Assembly: GCA_965231065.1 (NCBI GenBank)
Contig: OZ246410.1
Span: forward strand, 579,046 to 643,045
DNA from: an uncultured Methanosarcinales archaeon
Lineage (GTDB): Archaea > Nanobdellota > Nanobdellia > Woesearchaeales > UBA10107
Length of the DNA stretch: 64,000 nucleotides
Direction of reading: 5' to 3'
In this document: one piece after another, positions 31,305 to 41,758 of the stretch
Position numbering within the stretch: the first letter of the stretch is position 1
Layout of the letters: each line of letters starts with the position of its first letter
Position numbers and translations under genes: made by a program
Notes under the pieces: model-generated
The model's database searches: none
What the model was told of the DNA's origin: nothing
Seen by the model: the letters and a program-made list of their open reading frames with translations, nothing else

Positions 31305-31709
31305 TTAGATCAGCCTAAAGCTAAACACCACAAGCAGAATATTCACAATATATACACCAGTACACACTAAACAAAGACTCTTGATCTTGAAGTACTGTAT
31401 GTATGCAAGAACCATTGAACCAAGCAATGATGCGACACAAAGTAAGAATATCGCAGGATAACCAAAGACAATTAAATTAAAGAAAGTCAATACGAAAACC
31501 GTAACATAAAAGAATATGCCACCCAATGAATTTGATATTCCATCAACCATCTTGCCATACTTACTCGTAACAACCTTCCCGCAGCTTGCGTGATCATTGA
31601 TATCACAGATCGCTTTATACTTTGGATTCTTCGAAGCTTGAATTTCAATGTAGTACGCATAGATAGAAAGTAACAATCCAATAACAGCAGTGATCTGGAT
31701 GTTTAACAT
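31305..31709 (-). CDS. Vitamin K epoxide reductase (VKOR) family membrane protein, paralog 1
   Basis: Loop Cys pair (CDINDHASCG). CLVC active site in the last TM. Confidence 0.65.
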   Translation of the reverse strand: MLNIQITAVIGLLLSIYAYYIEIQASKNPKYKAICDINDHASCGKVVTSKYGKMVDGISNSLGGIFFYVTVFVLTFFNLIVFGYPAIFLLCVASLLGSMVLAYIQYFKIKSLCLVCTGVYIVNILLVVFSFRLI

Positions 31710-34642: not shown

Positions 34643-35323
34643 ATGAAGAAGAAAATATCACGGGTCAAGTATTTCAACCTTGAAGAAGAGCTCGCCAAAC
34701 AGCACTTTCGGGTCGCTATTTTCGGATCTGCACGGATCCAAAAGTCAAACAAATACTACAAAGAAGTCTACGTGATTGCGAAAGAATTAGGCAAGATGGG
34801 CATTGATGTCGTCTCAGGCGGCGGACCGGGAATCATGGAAGCTGCCAATAAAGGCCATGAAGAAGGCAAGAAAACAAGTCATAATGGCACTACACATTCA
34901 TTCGGACTGACAATCAAACTACCTGAAGAACAGAGAGACAACAGACATTTTGATATGAAGAAAGATTTCCAGCGATTCTCTTCACGGCTTGATTACTTCA
35001 TTGAATTATCGAACGCAATCGTCGTCGCTCCCGGTGGCGTCGGTACCTTACTGGAATTTCTCTATGCGTGGCAGCTGATCCAGGTAGAACATATCTATGA
35101 TATCCCGATCATCATGCTTGGCGAACAGTGGGCTCATCTCATCCAATGGGTGAAGAAGGGTCCATTGAAACATCATCTGTTGAAAGAAGAGGATCTTGAT
35201 AATATCTATGTCGTACGCAATGCAAAAGAAGCGATGAAAATCATCAAGGTCGCATCGCAGGCATTCAAGAAAGCAAAAACAAAAGGACCATATATACCTC
35301 TAAGAAATACGCGCCTTAATTGA
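34643..35323 (+). CDS. LOG-family (TIGR00730) nucleotide-binding protein
   Basis: GGGPGIMEA and PGGVGTLLE motifs. Confidence 0.8.
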   Translation: MKKKISRVKYFNLEEELAKQHFRVAIFGSARIQKSNKYYKEVYVIAKELGKMGIDVVSGGGPGIMEAANKGHEEGKKTSHNGTTHSFGLTIKLPEEQRDNRHFDMKKDFQRFSSRLDYFIELSNAIVVAPGGVGTLLEFLYAWQLIQVEHIYDIPIIMLGEQWAHLIQWVKKGPLKHHLLKEEDLDNIYVVRNAKEAMKIIKVASQAFKKAKTKGPYIPLRNTRLN

Positions 35324-35714
35324 CGATCAATTGTCCTTCCATTTCTCTATGTCCTGCACCGCAGTACACGTCACAGTGAAAGGTGAATGTTCCCTGCTTG
35401 CTGGCGACAAATCTGAAATTGACTGTCTCTCCTGCCTTGACTTTCTGTTCGACATTAAGATCAGGGATGAAGAAGCCATGGTCCACATCAGCGCTCGTTA
35501 AGGTGATGTCAACAATATCGCCTTTATTCACAGTGATTGTCGAAGGATCAAATTCCCAATTCTTTGCGGTCATGGTGAAGCTTTGAACGGTAGCGTCTTT
35601 GGATGCATACCCAACCACAGGGATCTGAGCCTCTGAAGTGGCTGCTGACTGTGCATGGGAAGGACATGCTGTCAAGAACAATAATAACGTGAGAAATACA
35701 AATGTCTTTTTCAT
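35316..35714 (-). CDS. CuA-type cupredoxin lipoprotein (COX2/N2OR-like copper centre)
   Basis: Signal peptide with LTAC lipobox-like site. FHCDVYCGAGHREM = H-x-C-x3-C-x3-H-x2-M CuA ligand set. Confidence 0.65.
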   Translation of the reverse strand: MKKTFVFLTLLLFLTACPSHAQSAATSEAQIPVVGYASKDATVQSFTMTAKNWEFDPSTITVNKGDIVDITLTSADVDHGFFIPDLNVEQKVKAGETVNFRFVASKQGTFTFHCDVYCGAGHREMEGQLIVN

Positions 35715-35757: not shown

Positions 35758-37992
35758 TTATAATTTCTTTCTTCTTAAAAGATTTGCGTTCGTGACGATC
35801 GTGATCGATGATAATGCCATCGCTATCTCTGCGACCACTGGGTGTAATAAACCAGCAATCGCGATCGGTATCGCAATGGTATTGTACGCGAACGCCCAGA
35901 ATAGATTTTGTTTTATCTTACTGAATGTCGCCTTAGATAAATTAATTGCTTGGACGACACCCATCAACGAGCCTTTCGCTAAAACCAAATCTCCTGCCTC
36001 TATCGCGATATCTGTTCCTGTTCCCATTGCTATACCAACATTTGATTCTTTCAATGCAGGAGCATCATTGATTCCATCACCGACGAATGCCACCATGCCT
36101 TGAGTTTGAAGTTCCCGTACTTTCCTTGCCTTATCTTCAGGAAGGACATTCGCGATGACATCAGAGATACCTACCTGCTTTGCTATAGCATTTGCAGTAC
36201 GTTCATTATCGCCTGTGATCATGATTGTCTTTAATCCCATTGCATTCAATCTGCTGATCGCTTCGATTGAGTCATCTTTGACTGCATCTGCAACAGCGAT
36301 TATACCAATGACTTTCTTATTCTCGACGACGACCATGGTTGTCTTTCCTTCATTTTCGAACTTTGTAAGAGAATTCTCATGATTCTTCAACGATATGGAT
36401 TTCTCTTCCATCAATGTCCTGTTGCCGATTATGATTTCGTTCTTTCCTATCTTTCCTTCTACGCCTCTGCCTCTCAATATCTTGAAACCCTTGACCTCAG
36501 AATATGTTCTAAGTCCTGTCTTTGCGACTATCGCCTTTGCGATAGGATGCTCTGATAGCCTTTCCATGCTGCCTGCGACACCAAGAAGATGACTTTCTTT
36601 AGCTACAGAATATACATCAGTGACTTCAGGATGCCCTTTAGTGATGGTTCCTGTTTTATCCAATACAATGATCTTGACCTTTTTCATTGTCTGTATCGCT
36701 TCACCTTTGCGAATTAAGATTCCGTTCTTCGCTCCCATTCCGGAACCGACCATCAATGCTGTCGGTGTCGCCAATCCTAAAGCACAAGGACAAGCGATGA
36801 CAAGGACAGCGACAGCGATTCCTATGGTATTGCTCAGATCACTGGTGAAATAGAACCATCCTGCGAAGGTAAGAAGCGAGATGACCAGTATTGATGGGAC
36901 GAATATATTTGTGATCTTATCTGCTAATTCCTGGATCGGAACTTTTGTTCCCTGCGCTTCTTCAACTAATTTGATGATGTGAGCAAGGAAGGTATCTTTG
37001 CCTACCTTCGTAGCCTTGACATACAAGATTCCATCCTGATTTATCGTGGCGCCGATGACATTGCTCTTTATTCTCTTCTCAACCGGCAAAGATTCACCGG
37101 AGATCATGCTTTCATCGACTGCACTTTCTCCTTTGACGACGATTCCGTCAGTAGGAATCTTCTCTCCTGGCTTGATGACCATGATATCGCCGATCTTGAT
37201 CTCAGATATCGGAAGTTCTATCTCTTTCTTTCCTCTGAGAACCCGTGCTGATTTTGCTCCTAGCTCCAATAATTTCTTGATTTCCCTGCTCGCTCTGCCT
37301 CTTGCCAATGCCTCGACATATTTTCCTGTCGTGAAGAATGCCATGATCATCGCACTGACTCCTGAATAATCCTGCATGCTGATGAAGTAACTTAAAATTC
37401 CTGTCATATAAGCTATGAGAGTTCCTAATGCTATGAGTGAATCCATATTGAAGTAGAGCGTGGAGAATCCACGTATTCCGCCTCGTATCGTCGGCCATCC
37501 GAAGATGAATATGACGGGGAACGCTAAAATAAGTATGACGACTGAATTTAATCTCGGCTCGAAAAACATCTTTCCAAAGAAACGTTCTGACAACATGAGG
37601 AACGCAACAGGAAGTGTGAATAACCATGACAGCCACATCTTACGTGACCAATCATTGATCTCTTTACTTTCAGTCACGCCGGTATGCTCATGACCAAGAT
37701 GGAGTTCTGTGCTCTTCATCTTTTCATGATCCATTTCCATCTTTTCGTGAGTCATCATCTCAGGATGTTCGGATTCTTCAAATGAGACAGACGTGGCTGT
37801 GTAGCCTGCTTTCTTGACCGCAGACTTGATATCAGCACCAGTAACAGAATCATCTGACTCTACAAATCCTTTATTCGTAAGAAGACTTACTCGTGCTGTC
37901 TTGATACCGGGAACTTTCTTCAGACTTCTCTCGATATTCATCGCGCAGGAAGCGCAGTCCATGCCTTCGATGCCTATCGTCGCTTTCTTCAT
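35758..37992 (-). CDS. copA: Cu(I)-translocating P1B-type ATPase CopA
   Basis: N-terminal [11 protein letters not shown], His-rich stretch, TM CPC ([10 protein letters not shown]), [15 protein letters not shown]. Confidence 0.9.
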
Positions 37993-39107
37993 ATGACGTT
38001 AAGTACTCCCGGACCTGCCATCCACATACTACAACTAAAATCTATTTTTCCTATTTTTTCAGGAGTAAATGTTATAATAGTATCCTGTGAACGATCAAGA
38101 CGCTGCAGTATCTTTAGCTTTGGAACATTAAGTACACCCGCACAACCATCAGCATTTCTTCCGTCGATATGCCACTCGACAGGAACTCCTTTCTTTATTG
38201 TGAATTGCGAAGGATAATAGGATAGTCCATCGACACGCATGTTGATTATCTGATTGCCGCCGACTACATCAGCATCTGCGGTATTCTGCGTTCCTGAAAG
38301 ATGGATACCATATCCTGTCAGTCCAAGACCTCCGTTAAGAGCGATGAAACCAAATACGATCGCCAAGACACCTGCGAATGCTGAAAGATAACGATGAGAT
38401 GCTCCTTTTGAGAAACTTGAAGCAGCACCGATCGAGACAAGCGCGGGCAATGTTCCCAGAGAGAAGAATAACATCGTCAACGCACCAGTCATGAAACTGC
38501 CTTGCGTCATCACATATAACTGCAGAGCCTGAGTGAATCCGCAGGGGAAAAAGAATGTAGCAGCGCCAAACAAGAAAGAAGTTCTGCCTGTGCTGTGTTC
38601 GCTCGCATTAAATATTTTCTCTGCGATAAATCGAGGCATGGTGATGAAAGAAGGGAAGATGTGCAATATCTGCAGACCAAGCAATATCATCGTCAGAGAG
38701 ACAAGAATCATGAGTATTCCTGCGGCAGTCTGTGAGAGGATGAAAAATGATCCGATGACGCCCAACAACCCGCCCAATACGGCATAAGAGATTACTCTTC
38801 CGATATTGAAATAGATATGCGGCTTGAATTTTTGAGAACCATGCAGATGAGGATTCCGCTCACTGTATCTCTGAGATACGATGAGCAAAAGGCTCCCGGT
38901 CGTAGCGGTACAGCTTGAAACAGCAGCTGCCAATCCGAGAACAAATGCGAATCCATAACTGACAGAATTGGAGATACCGATATTTGGAAGAAGATTGAAT
39001 TGCCGTGATAAGACATAGAGACCAAGAACAATTATGAATATCGCGACTAGTTCGCTTTTACCAATATTCTTTGAGTTGGGCGAGCATACCTGTTTATTAT
39101 CAGCCAT
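37989..39107 (-). CDS. Polytopic membrane protein with C-terminal soluble cupredoxin-like/Cys-containing domain; translationally coupled to copA
   Basis: About eight TM helices, then a 90-aa beta-rich tail with C...C...SCSMWM. Stop overlaps the copA start. Confidence 0.55.
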
Positions 39108-39167
39108 AGATGAGTTATAGAGGAAATACTTTATAAATATTGCAGTGAAACCAGTTTCAGTATGTTT

Positions 39168-39677
39168 CTAGACACGCAAAATGACAACATTGGTCATCCC
39201 GCGTCTTTTCCGTTCAATAAGACCTTTGCCTTCGAGCCTGTCGAGAATCCGTGTGACTTTCACCTTGGTCATTCCTGTTTTATCCGCCAATTCTGACTGC
39301 ATGACAGAACCCTGAGAATCGACGACCGCAGAAAGAATCGATTTCTCATCAGTATGCAATCCATGCATGATCTTCTGGTAATTCTCCTTGGTGAGCCTCT
39401 TCGGCTGTAATTGTTCTTTGACCCTCATTATCTTAGTCACCAGTTTCTCCTCTTTGGAGAAGAATATCAGATAGAGACCGATGCAGACGACAAAGATTAG
39501 TAATATGATATTGATTTTAATTTGCTGATTCGCAATCTGTTCATGGGGACAGGCTGGTCCGACAAGAGGACATGTTCCCTCTGCCAGAGACAGTAATGCA
39601 GAGTGATATGAATAAATGGTAAATCCCATGAGAACGGCGATACTGATGACAAGGTATCCTGCAATCTTGTTTTTCAT
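39168..39677 (-). CDS. Membrane-tethered winged-helix (MarR/TrmB-like) regulator with extracytoplasmic CPx4CP loop
   Basis: TM1 aa 5-25, loop GTCPLVGPACPH, TM2 aa 53-75, cytoplasmic wHTH ELADKTGMTKVKVTRILDRLEGKGLIER. Confidence 0.6.
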   Translation of the reverse strand: MKNKIAGYLVISIAVLMGFTIYSYHSALLSLAEGTCPLVGPACPHEQIANQQIKINIILLIFVVCIGLYLIFFSKEEKLVTKIMRVKEQLQPKRLTKENYQKIMHGLHTDEKSILSAVVDSQGSVMQSELADKTGMTKVKVTRILDRLEGKGLIERKRRGMTNVVILRV

Positions 39678-39718
39678 ATTTGTATAACAGAGAAATACTT
39701 TATAAAACTATGGTGAAA

Positions 39719-40246
39719 CTAGTTTCTAAGAGCAAATCTCGTTCTTTTCCAACTTGTCTTTATGCGGAAAGAGATTATCAAAGAAGCAAGTATCAGCGCA
39801 TCGAGCAATAAACAGTACAGACAATACGTCCGCAGTATGAATGCCTGCACATAGATTAGAGAGATGCCGTATAATAAGGAGAATATCAATAATCCGCGAA
39901 TTGACCAGATCATGTGATTCGTATTGAATCTGCCGATATCCTTCTCGTGCCAGATATGCAATGCGCCGATCTTGATAAGTAAGAACACAACGATCGCCAT
40001 GATTGCCACAGGAATACCGATTGTGACAATAGGCACCGACAATCCAAGATCAACCGCTAAAAAATAAAATATGTTATCGACTGTTGCGTAGGGGCTTTGA
40101 GCAGCGATGCCACAATCGAAGTTCTTTCCGAATTTACAGAAAGAGAGCGGTGCTTTGGAATAATGTTCATACGTGATCAAAGAACTATCGACAATCGCCA
40201 AGAAAGATAGGACAAACAAGATAACCAATAATGTTTTTTTATTCAT
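39719..40246 (-). CDS. VKOR-family membrane protein, paralog 2
   Basis: Loop Cys pair CKFGKNFDCG. YCLYC active-site CxxC in the final TM. Confidence 0.65.
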   Translation of the reverse strand: MNKKTLLVILFVLSFLAIVDSSLITYEHYSKAPLSFCKFGKNFDCGIAAQSPYATVDNIFYFLAVDLGLSVPIVTIGIPVAIMAIVVFLLIKIGALHIWHEKDIGRFNTNHMIWSIRGLLIFSLLYGISLIYVQAFILRTYCLYCLLLDALILASLIISFRIKTSWKRTRFALRN

Positions 40247-40252
40247 GAGACC

Positions 40253-40618
40253 TCATTGGATCAGATCAAGACTACAGCCGCTTTTGTCGCTCAACTGGAT
40301 CATGGTAACCTCTCCCTCGATACGTGATCCATCCTTGAACATCCATGTTGGATAACTCGCGATCTTGTCCTGTTTGCAGATTGCGGTCTGGTCTGACTTA
40401 TCAGGTAATGAGCATTCGACGTAGTCGATATACTGGAAACTGCTGCCGAACATCTTCTTCTGTGCGTTGCAATGCGGACACCAGAATGCACCGTACATCT
40501 TGACGCCATTCTGAGTCAGGCATTTCGCAAAATCATCGAATTTACCGGCTTCTTGCACAGTAGCGCATGCTGCAAGAATCAACAATGATGCGACTATGAT
40601 TGAAAATGCTGCTTTCAT
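40253..40618 (-). CDS. Thioredoxin-like lipoprotein (VKOR partner)
   Basis: Signal peptide ending LAAC. WCPHC redox site. Confidence 0.7.
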   Translation of the reverse strand: MKAAFSIIVASLLILAACATVQEAGKFDDFAKCLTQNGVKMYGAFWCPHCNAQKKMFGSSFQYIDYVECSLPDKSDQTAICKQDKIASYPTWMFKDGSRIEGEVTMIQLSDKSGCSLDLIQ

Positions 40619-40649
40619 ACAGTAGCAGATGAAGAAACCATTTATATAG

Positions 40650-41036
40650 TTAACGAGAAACTGATTTCGTCTTCATGAATGGGTCGAGGACGTATTTGAA
40701 TCCAAAATAGAGGACAAATATCAGTATCAGAGCGTGAATCACTAAAAACCCCAATACAAATCCAAGCGGATATCCTTCGAGGTAATATCGCATCTGCAGA
40801 AGTATAGTAGTGACAGCTGTGACTATGAAGACGCGCGTCCATAGACTCTTCTTCTGAACAAACAAATAGGTGATGAACGCGATGATAGTGCCATAGATCT
40901 CCTTATTTCTGAAGTATCGCTCCGGAACGGAGTATGCAGGACTTAAACCATGGAACAAAAAATCAATGAAGTCAAAAATAAAGACCGCGGCAAGAAAGAA
41001 TAGAAATACCAAGAGATAGTTCTTATGCTGTTTCAT
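40650..41036 (-). CDS. Hypothetical membrane protein (128 aa)
   Basis: Four TM segments. Confidence 0.45.
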   Translation of the reverse strand: MKQHKNYLLVFLFFLAAVFIFDFIDFLFHGLSPAYSVPERYFRNKEIYGTIIAFITYLFVQKKSLWTRVFIVTAVTTILLQMRYYLEGYPLGFVLGFLVIHALILIFVLYFGFKYVLDPFMKTKSVSR

Positions 41037-41638: not shown

Positions 41639-41758
41639 GTGAATATAAGAAATACTCTATTTAAACTTTATCAAGTTCACTGTTTTAGTATGATCTAAAT
41701 GTTATGAGAAAGATTTAAAAAGCAAGGCATATTCACAAAATACAAAGGGGGATATTTT

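Follow-up and report, generated by a model that had tools for sequence, protein, structure and literature searches.

What does a small membrane protein with a DNA-binding domain at its C-terminus sense outside the cytoplasm, and which genes does it control in response? The question is posed by a 169-residue open reading frame (ORF) with an ATG start at positions 39168..39677 (minus strand) of a 64,000-nucleotide stretch of contig OZ246410.1, hereafter the window, from a groundwater-dwelling, Woesearchaeota-type DPANN archaeon whose 774-kb genome (one contig, 99.6% complete) holds a single full-length copy of the gene. From the ORF listing, Pfam and homologues, we read its product as a membrane-anchored winged helix-turn-helix (wHTH) protein, most likely a transmembrane one-component transcription regulator, as predicted from its sequence. 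An initial annotation of the window had suggested that its two transmembrane (TM) helices expose a di-cysteine loop to the compartment served by a neighboring VKOR-thioredoxin pair, and that it senses thiol redox state or Cu(I) there and controls the surrounding gene island, an interpretation that our analysis supports in part. We favor, at a probability of roughly 60%, a membrane-anchored regulator that receives a copper signal at its outer tip, acts through palindromic operators and governs a regulon for copper export and thiol-disulfide chemistry. To our knowledge, DPANN archaea have tiny genomes, few recognizable signaling systems and no genetics, and how they sense their environment is largely unknown.

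Architecture and family of the regulator

The protein opens with a short lysine-rich segment, predicted to be cytoplasmic, and a TM helix at about residues 5-24 (39606..39665), continues through a predicted extracytoplasmic tip, C36-P-L-V-G-P-A-C43-P-H45 (39543..39572), to a second TM helix at about residues 57-73 (39459..39509) and a cytoplasmic linker rich in lysine and arginine, and ends in a wHTH DNA-binding domain at residues ~97-167 (39177..39389), all on the minus strand. Hydrophobicity and an AlphaFold2 model place both helices (a script returned two hydrophobic segments, at about 5-22 and 57-74), the same two sources and the alignment place the tip, and Pfam, the model and structure matches place the wHTH domain; the two-helix bracket and cytoplasmic MarR/TrmB-like C-terminus described by the initial annotation are thus borne out. 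Its loop letters, GTCPLVGPACPH, were also right, but the spacing that it gave, CPx4CP, was miscounted: with C36 encoded at 39570-39572 and C43 at 39549-39551 (minus strand), the loop reads C36-P-x5-C43-P (C-x6-C), or CPx5CP. We take the start codon to be correct because the N-terminal MKN(K/R) is kept across the aligned homologues.

Built from a 33-sequence alignment, the AlphaFold2 model (mean predicted local distance difference test score 75.9, predicted template-modeling score 0.42) shows two long antiparallel helices, residues 2-35 and 44-89, linked by residues 36-43, and a wHTH at 97-167 behind a linker (84-96) modeled with low confidence. Both cysteines sit at the exact tip of this hairpin, some ten residues beyond each TM segment. 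A homodimer prediction scored 0.01 and 0.04 against a mark of 0.42 and so speaks neither for nor against a dimer. Pfam matched only the C-terminal winged helix (residues ~104-167), best with DUF7343 (PF24034; 5.8e-12, 45.7 bits against a gathering cut-off of 27.6, residues 108-167 on profile positions 2-61 of 62), then MarR_2 (PF12802; 3.9e-09, 37.0 bits, cut-off 27) and MarR (PF01047; 6.5e-09, 36.0 bits, cut-off 24.6), followed by HTH_Crp_2 and TrmB (2.5e-06). No NCBIfam model reached its cut-off, the best being Sta1 (29.7 bits against 80) and Lrs14 (28.4 against 90).

We predict an N-in, loop-out, C-in topology for the whole family, because lysine plus arginine density is 0.33 in the N-terminus of about 6 residues, 0.04 in the loop of about 32 residues and 0.29 in the 25 residues after the second helix, taken over 241 family members, and because the wHTH must reach DNA; this is a positive-inside argument and not the output of a dedicated topology predictor. 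The loop is accordingly predicted to lie outside, as the initial annotation had it, and not in the cytoplasm, the outcome that would have spoken against it.

Of 1720 candidates from a word-indexed protein search, 1684 were homologous at E<=1e-3, which puts the ORF far beyond chance, and nearly all of those listed are 166-171 residues long with 99% of the query aligned. An exhaustive search of representatives at 50% identity gave 1154 clusters at E<=1e-3, of which 312 reached E<=1e-10. Labels on the homologues include Nanoarchaeota, Woesearchaeota, Pacearchaeota, Aenigmatarchaeota, Micrarchaeota and Iainarchaeum. In the 33-sequence alignment C36 and C43 are invariant (33/33), no other cysteine or histidine of the regulator is conserved, and the recognition region is largely invariant as well (K138, T142, R143, D146, R156, R158, R159, G160, M161 and N163). 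Beyond the alignment, a crude script found C-x2-9-C between the hydrophobic segments in 106 of 127 representatives (at least 145 residues, from 150 listed), and a second script, whose filters (145-200 residues, two hydrophobic segments) passed 241 of 270 stored proteins, found the pair in 235 of the 241, so that the loop conservation on which the initial annotation depended is present. The residue after the second cysteine is proline in 183 of these 235 proteins, and the next is methionine in 129 and histidine in 60. The majority tip motif is C-x-H-G-P-x-C-P-M-W, the protein of the window belonging to a small C-x6-C-P-H-E subclade; a metagenome scan for further C-x6-C-P-H members returned one such locus (L117, 73% identical), which shares its contig with L001, the remaining 79 loci being 42-60% identical.

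Downstream copper genes and a candidate operator

To see which genes accompany the regulator we assembled two sets of loci, the first from one genome per species (at least 579 relatives found, 79 loci kept) and the second, an independent replication set, from metagenomes (80 loci). ORFs were called by a greedy longest-ORF heuristic and labeled by BLASTP against the proteins of the window at 1e-5; because longer overlapping ORFs displaced the regulator in four loci (L035, L039, L042, L073), neighbors were counted by tblastn with the window's own proteins, and loci with at least 4 kb of downstream DNA (n=59) were treated as evaluable. In 46 of the 59, the regulator has a CopA-like ATPase within 5 kb downstream of it and in its own orientation. 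Counted over the full set of 79, the neighbors are CopA in 51, a DsbD_2-type protein in 27, DsbA in 10, a thioredoxin lipoprotein in 10, VKOR in 2 and a cupredoxin lipoprotein in 1, and among 92 unlabeled genes directly downstream of the regulator Pfam recognized 14 HMA-domain membrane proteins and 13 FtrD-like proteins, together with cupredoxin, DUF305, DUF411, Temptin_C, PCYCGC, hemerythrin and unrelated housekeeping genes. The linkage to copper and redox genes anticipated by the initial annotation therefore holds through CopA, HMA, FtrD-like and thioredoxin/DsbA neighbors, while VKOR, the partner that it had singled out, occurs in 2 of 79 loci. The conserved partner of the regulator across the family is copper export, in the form of a downstream CopA operon that the initial annotation did not name, and not VKOR.

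The same loci carry a shared DNA element. Both spacers flanking the regulator gene hold GAAAC-NN-GTTTC, in the only two exact copies in the window. Across the 79 genome loci (801 kb) this 12-mer occurs 66 times against 0.89 expected from base composition, nearly always between genes and just 3' of the regulator stop codon, and across the 80 metagenome loci 68 times against 0.67; among loci in which at least 150 nt of DNA follow the regulator gene, an exact site lies within 1.5 kb past it in 61 of 77 genome loci and 62 of 74 metagenome loci. All 124 unique sites have in common the form T-GAAAC-NN-GTTTC-A (NN being TA in 108, CA in 10 and TG in 6) and a fixed layout, in which the palindrome is followed after ~9 nt by a TATA-like box and, 2-3 nt further on, by a third GTTTC, at +19 from the 12-mer in 111 of 124 sites and at +18 in 6, against 4 in a mirror-image control. 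A second pseudo-palindrome over the TATA box was considered and rejected, as the consensus to the left of the third site (.ATAaG) fits TGAAAC poorly, leaving a lone half-site. The start codon most often lies 39-40 nt past the 12-mer, and because the TATA box is then ~23 nt before the ATG, the transcripts would be leaderless; on that reading the palindrome would span about -53 to -40, just upstream of the transcription factor B recognition element (BRE), with the third half-site at about -20 to -15. Of 61 related genomes, 41 match the regulator to some extent at 1e-10, and 13 contain the exact GAAACTAGTTTC, which in nine genomes (G001, G003, G005, G010, G024, G039, G046, G050 and G055) lies within a few hundred nucleotides of a homologue; it is this adjacency that is informative and not the count of genomes, because a reversed-pattern control matches about ten of the 61.

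A scan of both strands for the composite element (12-mer with up to 2 mismatches, TATA-like box, (G/A)TTTC at +17 to +24) returned exactly three sites in the window, which are also the only three in the 774-kb genome; five shuffles gave 1, 0, 1, 0 and 0. The three stand consecutively on the minus strand, each 37-39 nt before an ATG. P1 (40634..40668), the putative operator of a thioredoxin-lipoprotein/VKOR2 unit, has the 12-mer GAAATCAGTTTC at 40657-40668, a TATA box at 40641-40648, the third half-site GTTTC at 40634-40638 and the ATG 38 nt after the 12-mer. P2 (39692..39726), the putative operator of the regulator gene itself, has an exact 12-mer, GAAACTAGTTTC, at 39715-39726 that overlaps the VKOR2 stop codon, a TATA box at ~39699-39707, ATTTC at 39692-39696 and the ATG 37 nt after the 12-mer. 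P3 (39123..39159), the putative operator of a DsbD2-cupredoxin/CopA unit, has the exact 14-mer TGAAACTGGTTTCA at 39146-39159, a TATA box at ~39130-39137, ATTTC at 39123-39127 and the ATG 39 nt after the 12-mer. Because three such promoters stand in a row, the regulon in this genome probably comprises the thioredoxin-lipoprotein/VKOR2 unit, the regulator and the DsbD2-cupredoxin/CopA unit. The island-wide control proposed by the initial annotation thus appears to contract to these units: no palindrome was found in the DoxX/DsbA divergent spacer or in the promoters of the neighboring 55-residue and 128-residue genes. The spacer 41639-41758, which it had put forward as a target, has a TATA box and GTATTTC but no palindrome, even with up to 2 mismatches, and it had overlooked the spacer 39108-39167 and the site 40657-40668.

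The predicted targets are minus-strand genes. Directly behind P3 lies a gene whose product joins a DsbD_2 membrane domain to a cupredoxin-like one (37989..39107) and ends in C359-S-M-W-M, a C-x-M-x-M pattern which we take to resemble the Cu(I) site of pneumococcal CupA; this fusion is without the N-terminal HMA domain of many relatives. Its 3' end is overlapped by 4 nt by the start of a CopA-type P1B ATPase (35758..37992; Pfam E1-E2_ATPase, HMA and Hydrolase) with GMDCASC at residue 10, CPC at 401, DKTGT at 445, YNTIAIP at 703 and MALSS at 725. P1B-1 Cu(I)/Ag(I) ATPases are recognized by an N-terminal HMA domain with CxxC, CPC in the sixth TM helix, YNx4P in the seventh and MxxSS in the eighth, and the pump of the window carries all four. 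The last gene on this strand, whose operon membership is uncertain, encodes a cupredoxin lipoprotein (35316..35714) with the motif H-C-x3-C-x3-H-x2-M (FHCDVYCGAGHREM), the pattern of the CuA center of cytochrome oxidase subunit II; Pfam matches it to COX2 (1.2e-06), and the window has no obvious oxidase context. Behind P1 stand the thioredoxin-fold lipoprotein (WCPHC; 40253..40618; ORF listing and Pfam) and, 6 nt after it and probably co-transcribed, VKOR paralogue 2 (39719..40246). It is rightly numbered the second, as VKOR paralogue 1 lies at ~31320-31700 on the same strand (Pfam VKOR 100.2 bits, against 54.4 for VKOR2), where the window scan found no composite operator. The initial annotation placed the regulator after VKOR2, the thioredoxin lipoprotein and a cysteine-rich 55-residue ORF, which is correct apart from the omission of a multi-TM protein of 128 residues (40650-41036, minus strand; no Pfam match) between that ORF and the lipoprotein. 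This 128-residue gene is kept beside the regulator/thioredoxin pair in genomes G000, G001 and G003.

Relatives in the same genus place operators and thiol genes together. In G005, whose regulator is 68% identical, one strand carries in order an operator, the regulator, the thioredoxin lipoprotein, VKOR, a degenerate operator (TGAAAATAGTTTCT followed by TATA and GTTTCA), DsbD2-cupredoxin and CopA, with gene boundaries that overlap or nearly touch. G001 has two regulator paralogues on one contig (L001:5488-5997 and L001:10342-10842, the latter equal to L199:843-1343). The first, 73% identical and with a C-x6-C-P-H type loop, lies between the 128-residue TM gene and the thioredoxin lipoprotein; an exact operator follows it, ahead of a dihydroorotate dehydrogenase/amino-acid permease/VKOR unit (L001:6400-9231), an odd gene set for a copper-type operator. 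The second, 55% identical and with a C-x5-C-P-M-W loop (SCTEGLTCPMW), has a one-mismatch operator before itself, and a further exact operator stands 6 kb past it, before DsbD2-cupredoxin/CopA. In its own promoter (L199:790-850), GTTAC replaces GTTTC both in the right half-site and at +19 and is repeated two further times ahead of the ATG; we rejected paralogue-specific operators as evidence of divergent specificity, since the recognition-helix regions are essentially the same. The two paralogues might assemble into heteromers or respond to two different signals that act on a single regulon. In G003 a homologue of 30% identity (L207:7215-7700) with far longer cysteine spacing (C-x12-C-P-A-H) is followed by the thioredoxin lipoprotein and the 128-residue TM gene, with a canonical composite operator downstream. 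Putative autoregulatory operators are typical of the genus and rare elsewhere; among 77 upstream regions examined, an exact operator precedes the regulator itself only in L031 and the window. VKOR stands outside the system family-wide but in this genus is probably inside it, and judging from these promoters the regulator probably controls part of the thiol island here as well.

Signal, direction and competing explanations

We propose that the N-terminal helical hairpin anchors the regulator with C36-x6-C43-P-H45 outside and the winged helix in the cytoplasm, where the latter, probably as a dimer or higher oligomer, would bind TGAAAC-NN-GTTTCA just upstream of the BRE and TATA box; that it binds the palindrome we infer from the conservation of both. 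The wHTH would also contact the third half-site, (G/A)TTTC, which lies past the TATA box and before the point where the leaderless transcript would begin. The signal would most likely be Cu(I), held by the two cysteines and the adjacent histidine (methionine in most relatives), and its binding would alter how the TM helices pack and how the DNA-binding domains are arranged, with copper export and extracytoplasmic thiol-disulfide maintenance as the output. Copper is favored as the signal because the tip combines two cysteines with a Pro-Met or Pro-His pair and because the conserved target is a Cu(I) pump; the loop would bind Cu(I) or be oxidized, and the signal would pass through the hairpin.

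Several observations weigh against this reading. CopA is absent within 5 kb in 13 of the 59 evaluable loci, the composite site is missing from 19 of 160 loci, and a close full-length homologue of the regulator is found in only about a dozen of the 61 genomes of order-level relatives. The pairing of regulator and operator is a co-occurrence among related genomes and not an independent test, because the loci were gathered through the regulator. In the window, the 12-mer of P1 carries a single mismatch and falls within coding sequence, at the 3' end of the 128-residue TM gene (its one-mismatch variant also occurs at the canonical position in another locus, L074), and the third half-site of P2 and P3 is ATTTC, not GTTTC. 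The DoxX promoter (41639-41700, minus strand) has TTTAAATA followed by GAGTATTTC, a TATA box and GTATTTC akin to those of P2 and P3 without the palindrome; the third half-site is therefore weaker evidence in this genome, where TATA plus GTATTTC may be a generic promoter-proximal element. Finally, the oxidizing VKOR/thioredoxin (CPHC) pair next door would favor a disulfide in the loop, which counts against Cu(I) sensing because a disulfide cannot bind Cu(I).

The last point leads to the alternative that survives best, though we judge it unlikely: a thiol-redox switch in which a dithiol/disulfide cycle in the loop, and not metal coordination, sets DNA binding, with oxidation catalyzed by copper or carried out by VKOR/thioredoxin and the thioredoxin lipoprotein acting as writer or resetter. 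The regulator adjoins that lipoprotein in all four genomes of the genus in which the region is assembled (G000, G001, G003 and G005), an operator-type promoter precedes the thioredoxin-VKOR2 genes in the window, and elsewhere, among 97 operator-driven units with a called first gene (crude operon rules), DsbA occurs in 10, thioredoxin in 4 and VKOR in 2. Oxidized and C80S structures of MarR appear among the structural matches, and E. coli MarR, in which copper reportedly drives cysteine oxidation, is a precedent. Yet the partner found family-wide is a Cu(I) pump, accompanied by proteins of the copper chaperone type, thioredoxin or VKOR linkage is rare beyond this genus, and the conserved Pro-Met/His after the second cysteine is more readily reconciled with a soft-metal site than with a simple disulfide. 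Copper sensing and a disulfide switch may also be one mechanism, because copper can catalyze thiol oxidation.

We find it less probable still that the cysteine pair merely staples the hairpin while the signal arrives through the membrane, from a partner such as DsbD2-cupredoxin, or by proteolytic release of the wHTH. A C-x5/6-C spacing at the tip of a helix-loop-helix would allow a stabilizing disulfide, family members space the two cysteines by 2 to 9 residues and the linker at 84-96 could be flexible; the 169-residue protein, however, has no other conserved potential ligand or sensor domain, and the conserved methionine or histidine at +2 would go unexplained. That the palindrome belongs to another factor or is a non-regulatory element such as a terminator, with the wHTH gene a mere syntenic neighbor, draws on the co-occurrence noted above and on the usual position of the palindrome right behind the regulator stop codon, but is very improbable given the fixed distances from palindrome to TATA box, third half-site and downstream ATG, a 2-nt loop too short for a stable hairpin, the near invariance of both operator and recognition-helix region, the operator copies that in this genus also lie upstream of the regulator gene, and the lack of CopR, CsoR or CopY candidates in the genome.

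If a copper signal at the tip does act through these operators, in which direction does it act? We lean slightly toward relief by copper of a repressor, or of a switch that stays bound at all times, over a pure activator, because the TATA box is bracketed and because the operon of G005 is laid out with the presumed repressor first. The position of the operator was rejected as a criterion, since a site just before the BRE combined with a contact past the TATA box is reported for both modes (PMC7830388): CopR sites directly upstream of the BRE accompany both activation and repression in Pyrococcus furiosus, and contacts downstream of TATA are described for the activators Ptr2 and BarR (PMC7830388).

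A more specific proposal, which we offer tentatively and rate somewhat below even odds, is that the regulator is a minimal sensor, in which a two-helix hairpin with a tip of ~10 residues (Cys-x5/6-Cys-Pro-His/Met) reads Cu(I) or copper-driven thiol oxidation and signals to a fused wHTH with neither a folded sensor domain nor a kinase. In this genus it would couple copper export with the VKOR/thioredoxin pair, whose thioredoxin lipoprotein may write or reset the sensor cysteines, an arrangement that would parallel, in an archaeon, the connection that bacteria have between copper stress and the repair of periplasmic disulfides. The locus would thereby tie copper export to the disulfide machinery, which could explain why the genes cluster in the genus. 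As the operator is nearly invariant across several DPANN lineages, it would also provide a ready regulator-operator pair, including for biosensor design.

Relation to known regulators

Transmembrane transcription regulators (TTRs) are defined by the combination, within a single protein, of a TM region with a DNA-binding domain, both predicted (Demey et al., 2023; PMC10269533), and the regulator, with two hydrophobic helices and a wHTH domain, falls under this definition. The main text of that census contains none of the words copper, MarR or DPANN (PMC10269533), and our full-text search of the literature found no mention of DUF7343 or PF24034 and no description of the regulator family, a statement that does not extend to the supplements of the census, which could list members. 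The family is real, conserved and undescribed in print. Like ToxR, TcpP and CadC in bacteria and ArnR/ArnR1 in Sulfolobus, the regulator is a membrane-anchored one-component protein with its DNA-binding domain on the cytoplasmic face. ToxR and CadC have an N-terminal OmpR-type wHTH (Trans_reg_C), a single TM helix and a C-terminal folded periplasmic sensor domain, whereas the regulator reverses this order, with an N-terminal two-helix hairpin, a C-terminal MarR/DUF7343-type wHTH and only a tip of ~10 residues outside; Trans_reg_C was not among the 16 Pfam families that matched it at E<=0.01.

Nor is it a canonical MarR protein. Structure and PDB sequence searches returned only generic MarR/ArsR/CodY winged-helix matches, the best by Foldseek being a MarR structure (8xu0_B, E 3.1e-04), S. 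aureus CadC (3f72_B) and AntR (6uvu_B), which are weak (query-normalized TM-score ~0.35) and confined to the C-terminal domain. Only the wHTH core of ~70 residues aligns (Pfam MarR positions 13-51 of 59; residues 21-88 of 8xt8_A). Canonical MarR proteins are soluble, about 140 residues long and dimerize through N- and C-terminal helices around the wHTH; these dimer helices have no counterpart in the regulator, whose first 90 residues are TM hairpin and linker.

The closest functional comparison is archaeal CopR (P. furiosus PF0739 and its homologues in Thermococcus onnurineus and Saccharolobus), which regulates copA from a semi-palindromic site directly upstream of the BRE, as an activator in some species and a repressor in others (PMC7830388). 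CopR is described as cytoplasmic, Lrp/TrmB-like and octameric, sensing metal through a C-terminal TRASH domain (PMC7830388). The regulator resembles it in its predicted control of copA and in a palindrome upstream of the BRE and differs from it in being membrane-bound, in its outside cysteine pair and in having no TRASH domain. No TRASH match was found in the regulator or the genome, and genes of the TRASH/CopR, CsoR and CopY (Penicillinase_R) families were likewise not found there.

Bacterial copper regulators supply the remaining points of comparison. CopY is a small wHTH repressor of the BlaI-MecI type that acts on a short N-nn-N palindrome, the cop box, before copA, and in CueR a short C-x7-C loop holds Cu(I) between its two cysteines; both are soluble proteins of the cytoplasm, with metal sites that differ from the tip in sequence and location, and the regulator is membrane-anchored. 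CusS and CopS would detect copper on the outer side of the cytoplasmic membrane and induce its export, as histidine kinases that work with a separate response regulator. Compared with these, the regulator would unite sensing and DNA binding in one chain and, if it indeed reads copper or thiol stress outside and acts on DNA inside within 169 residues, would rank among the simplest transmembrane signaling devices described.

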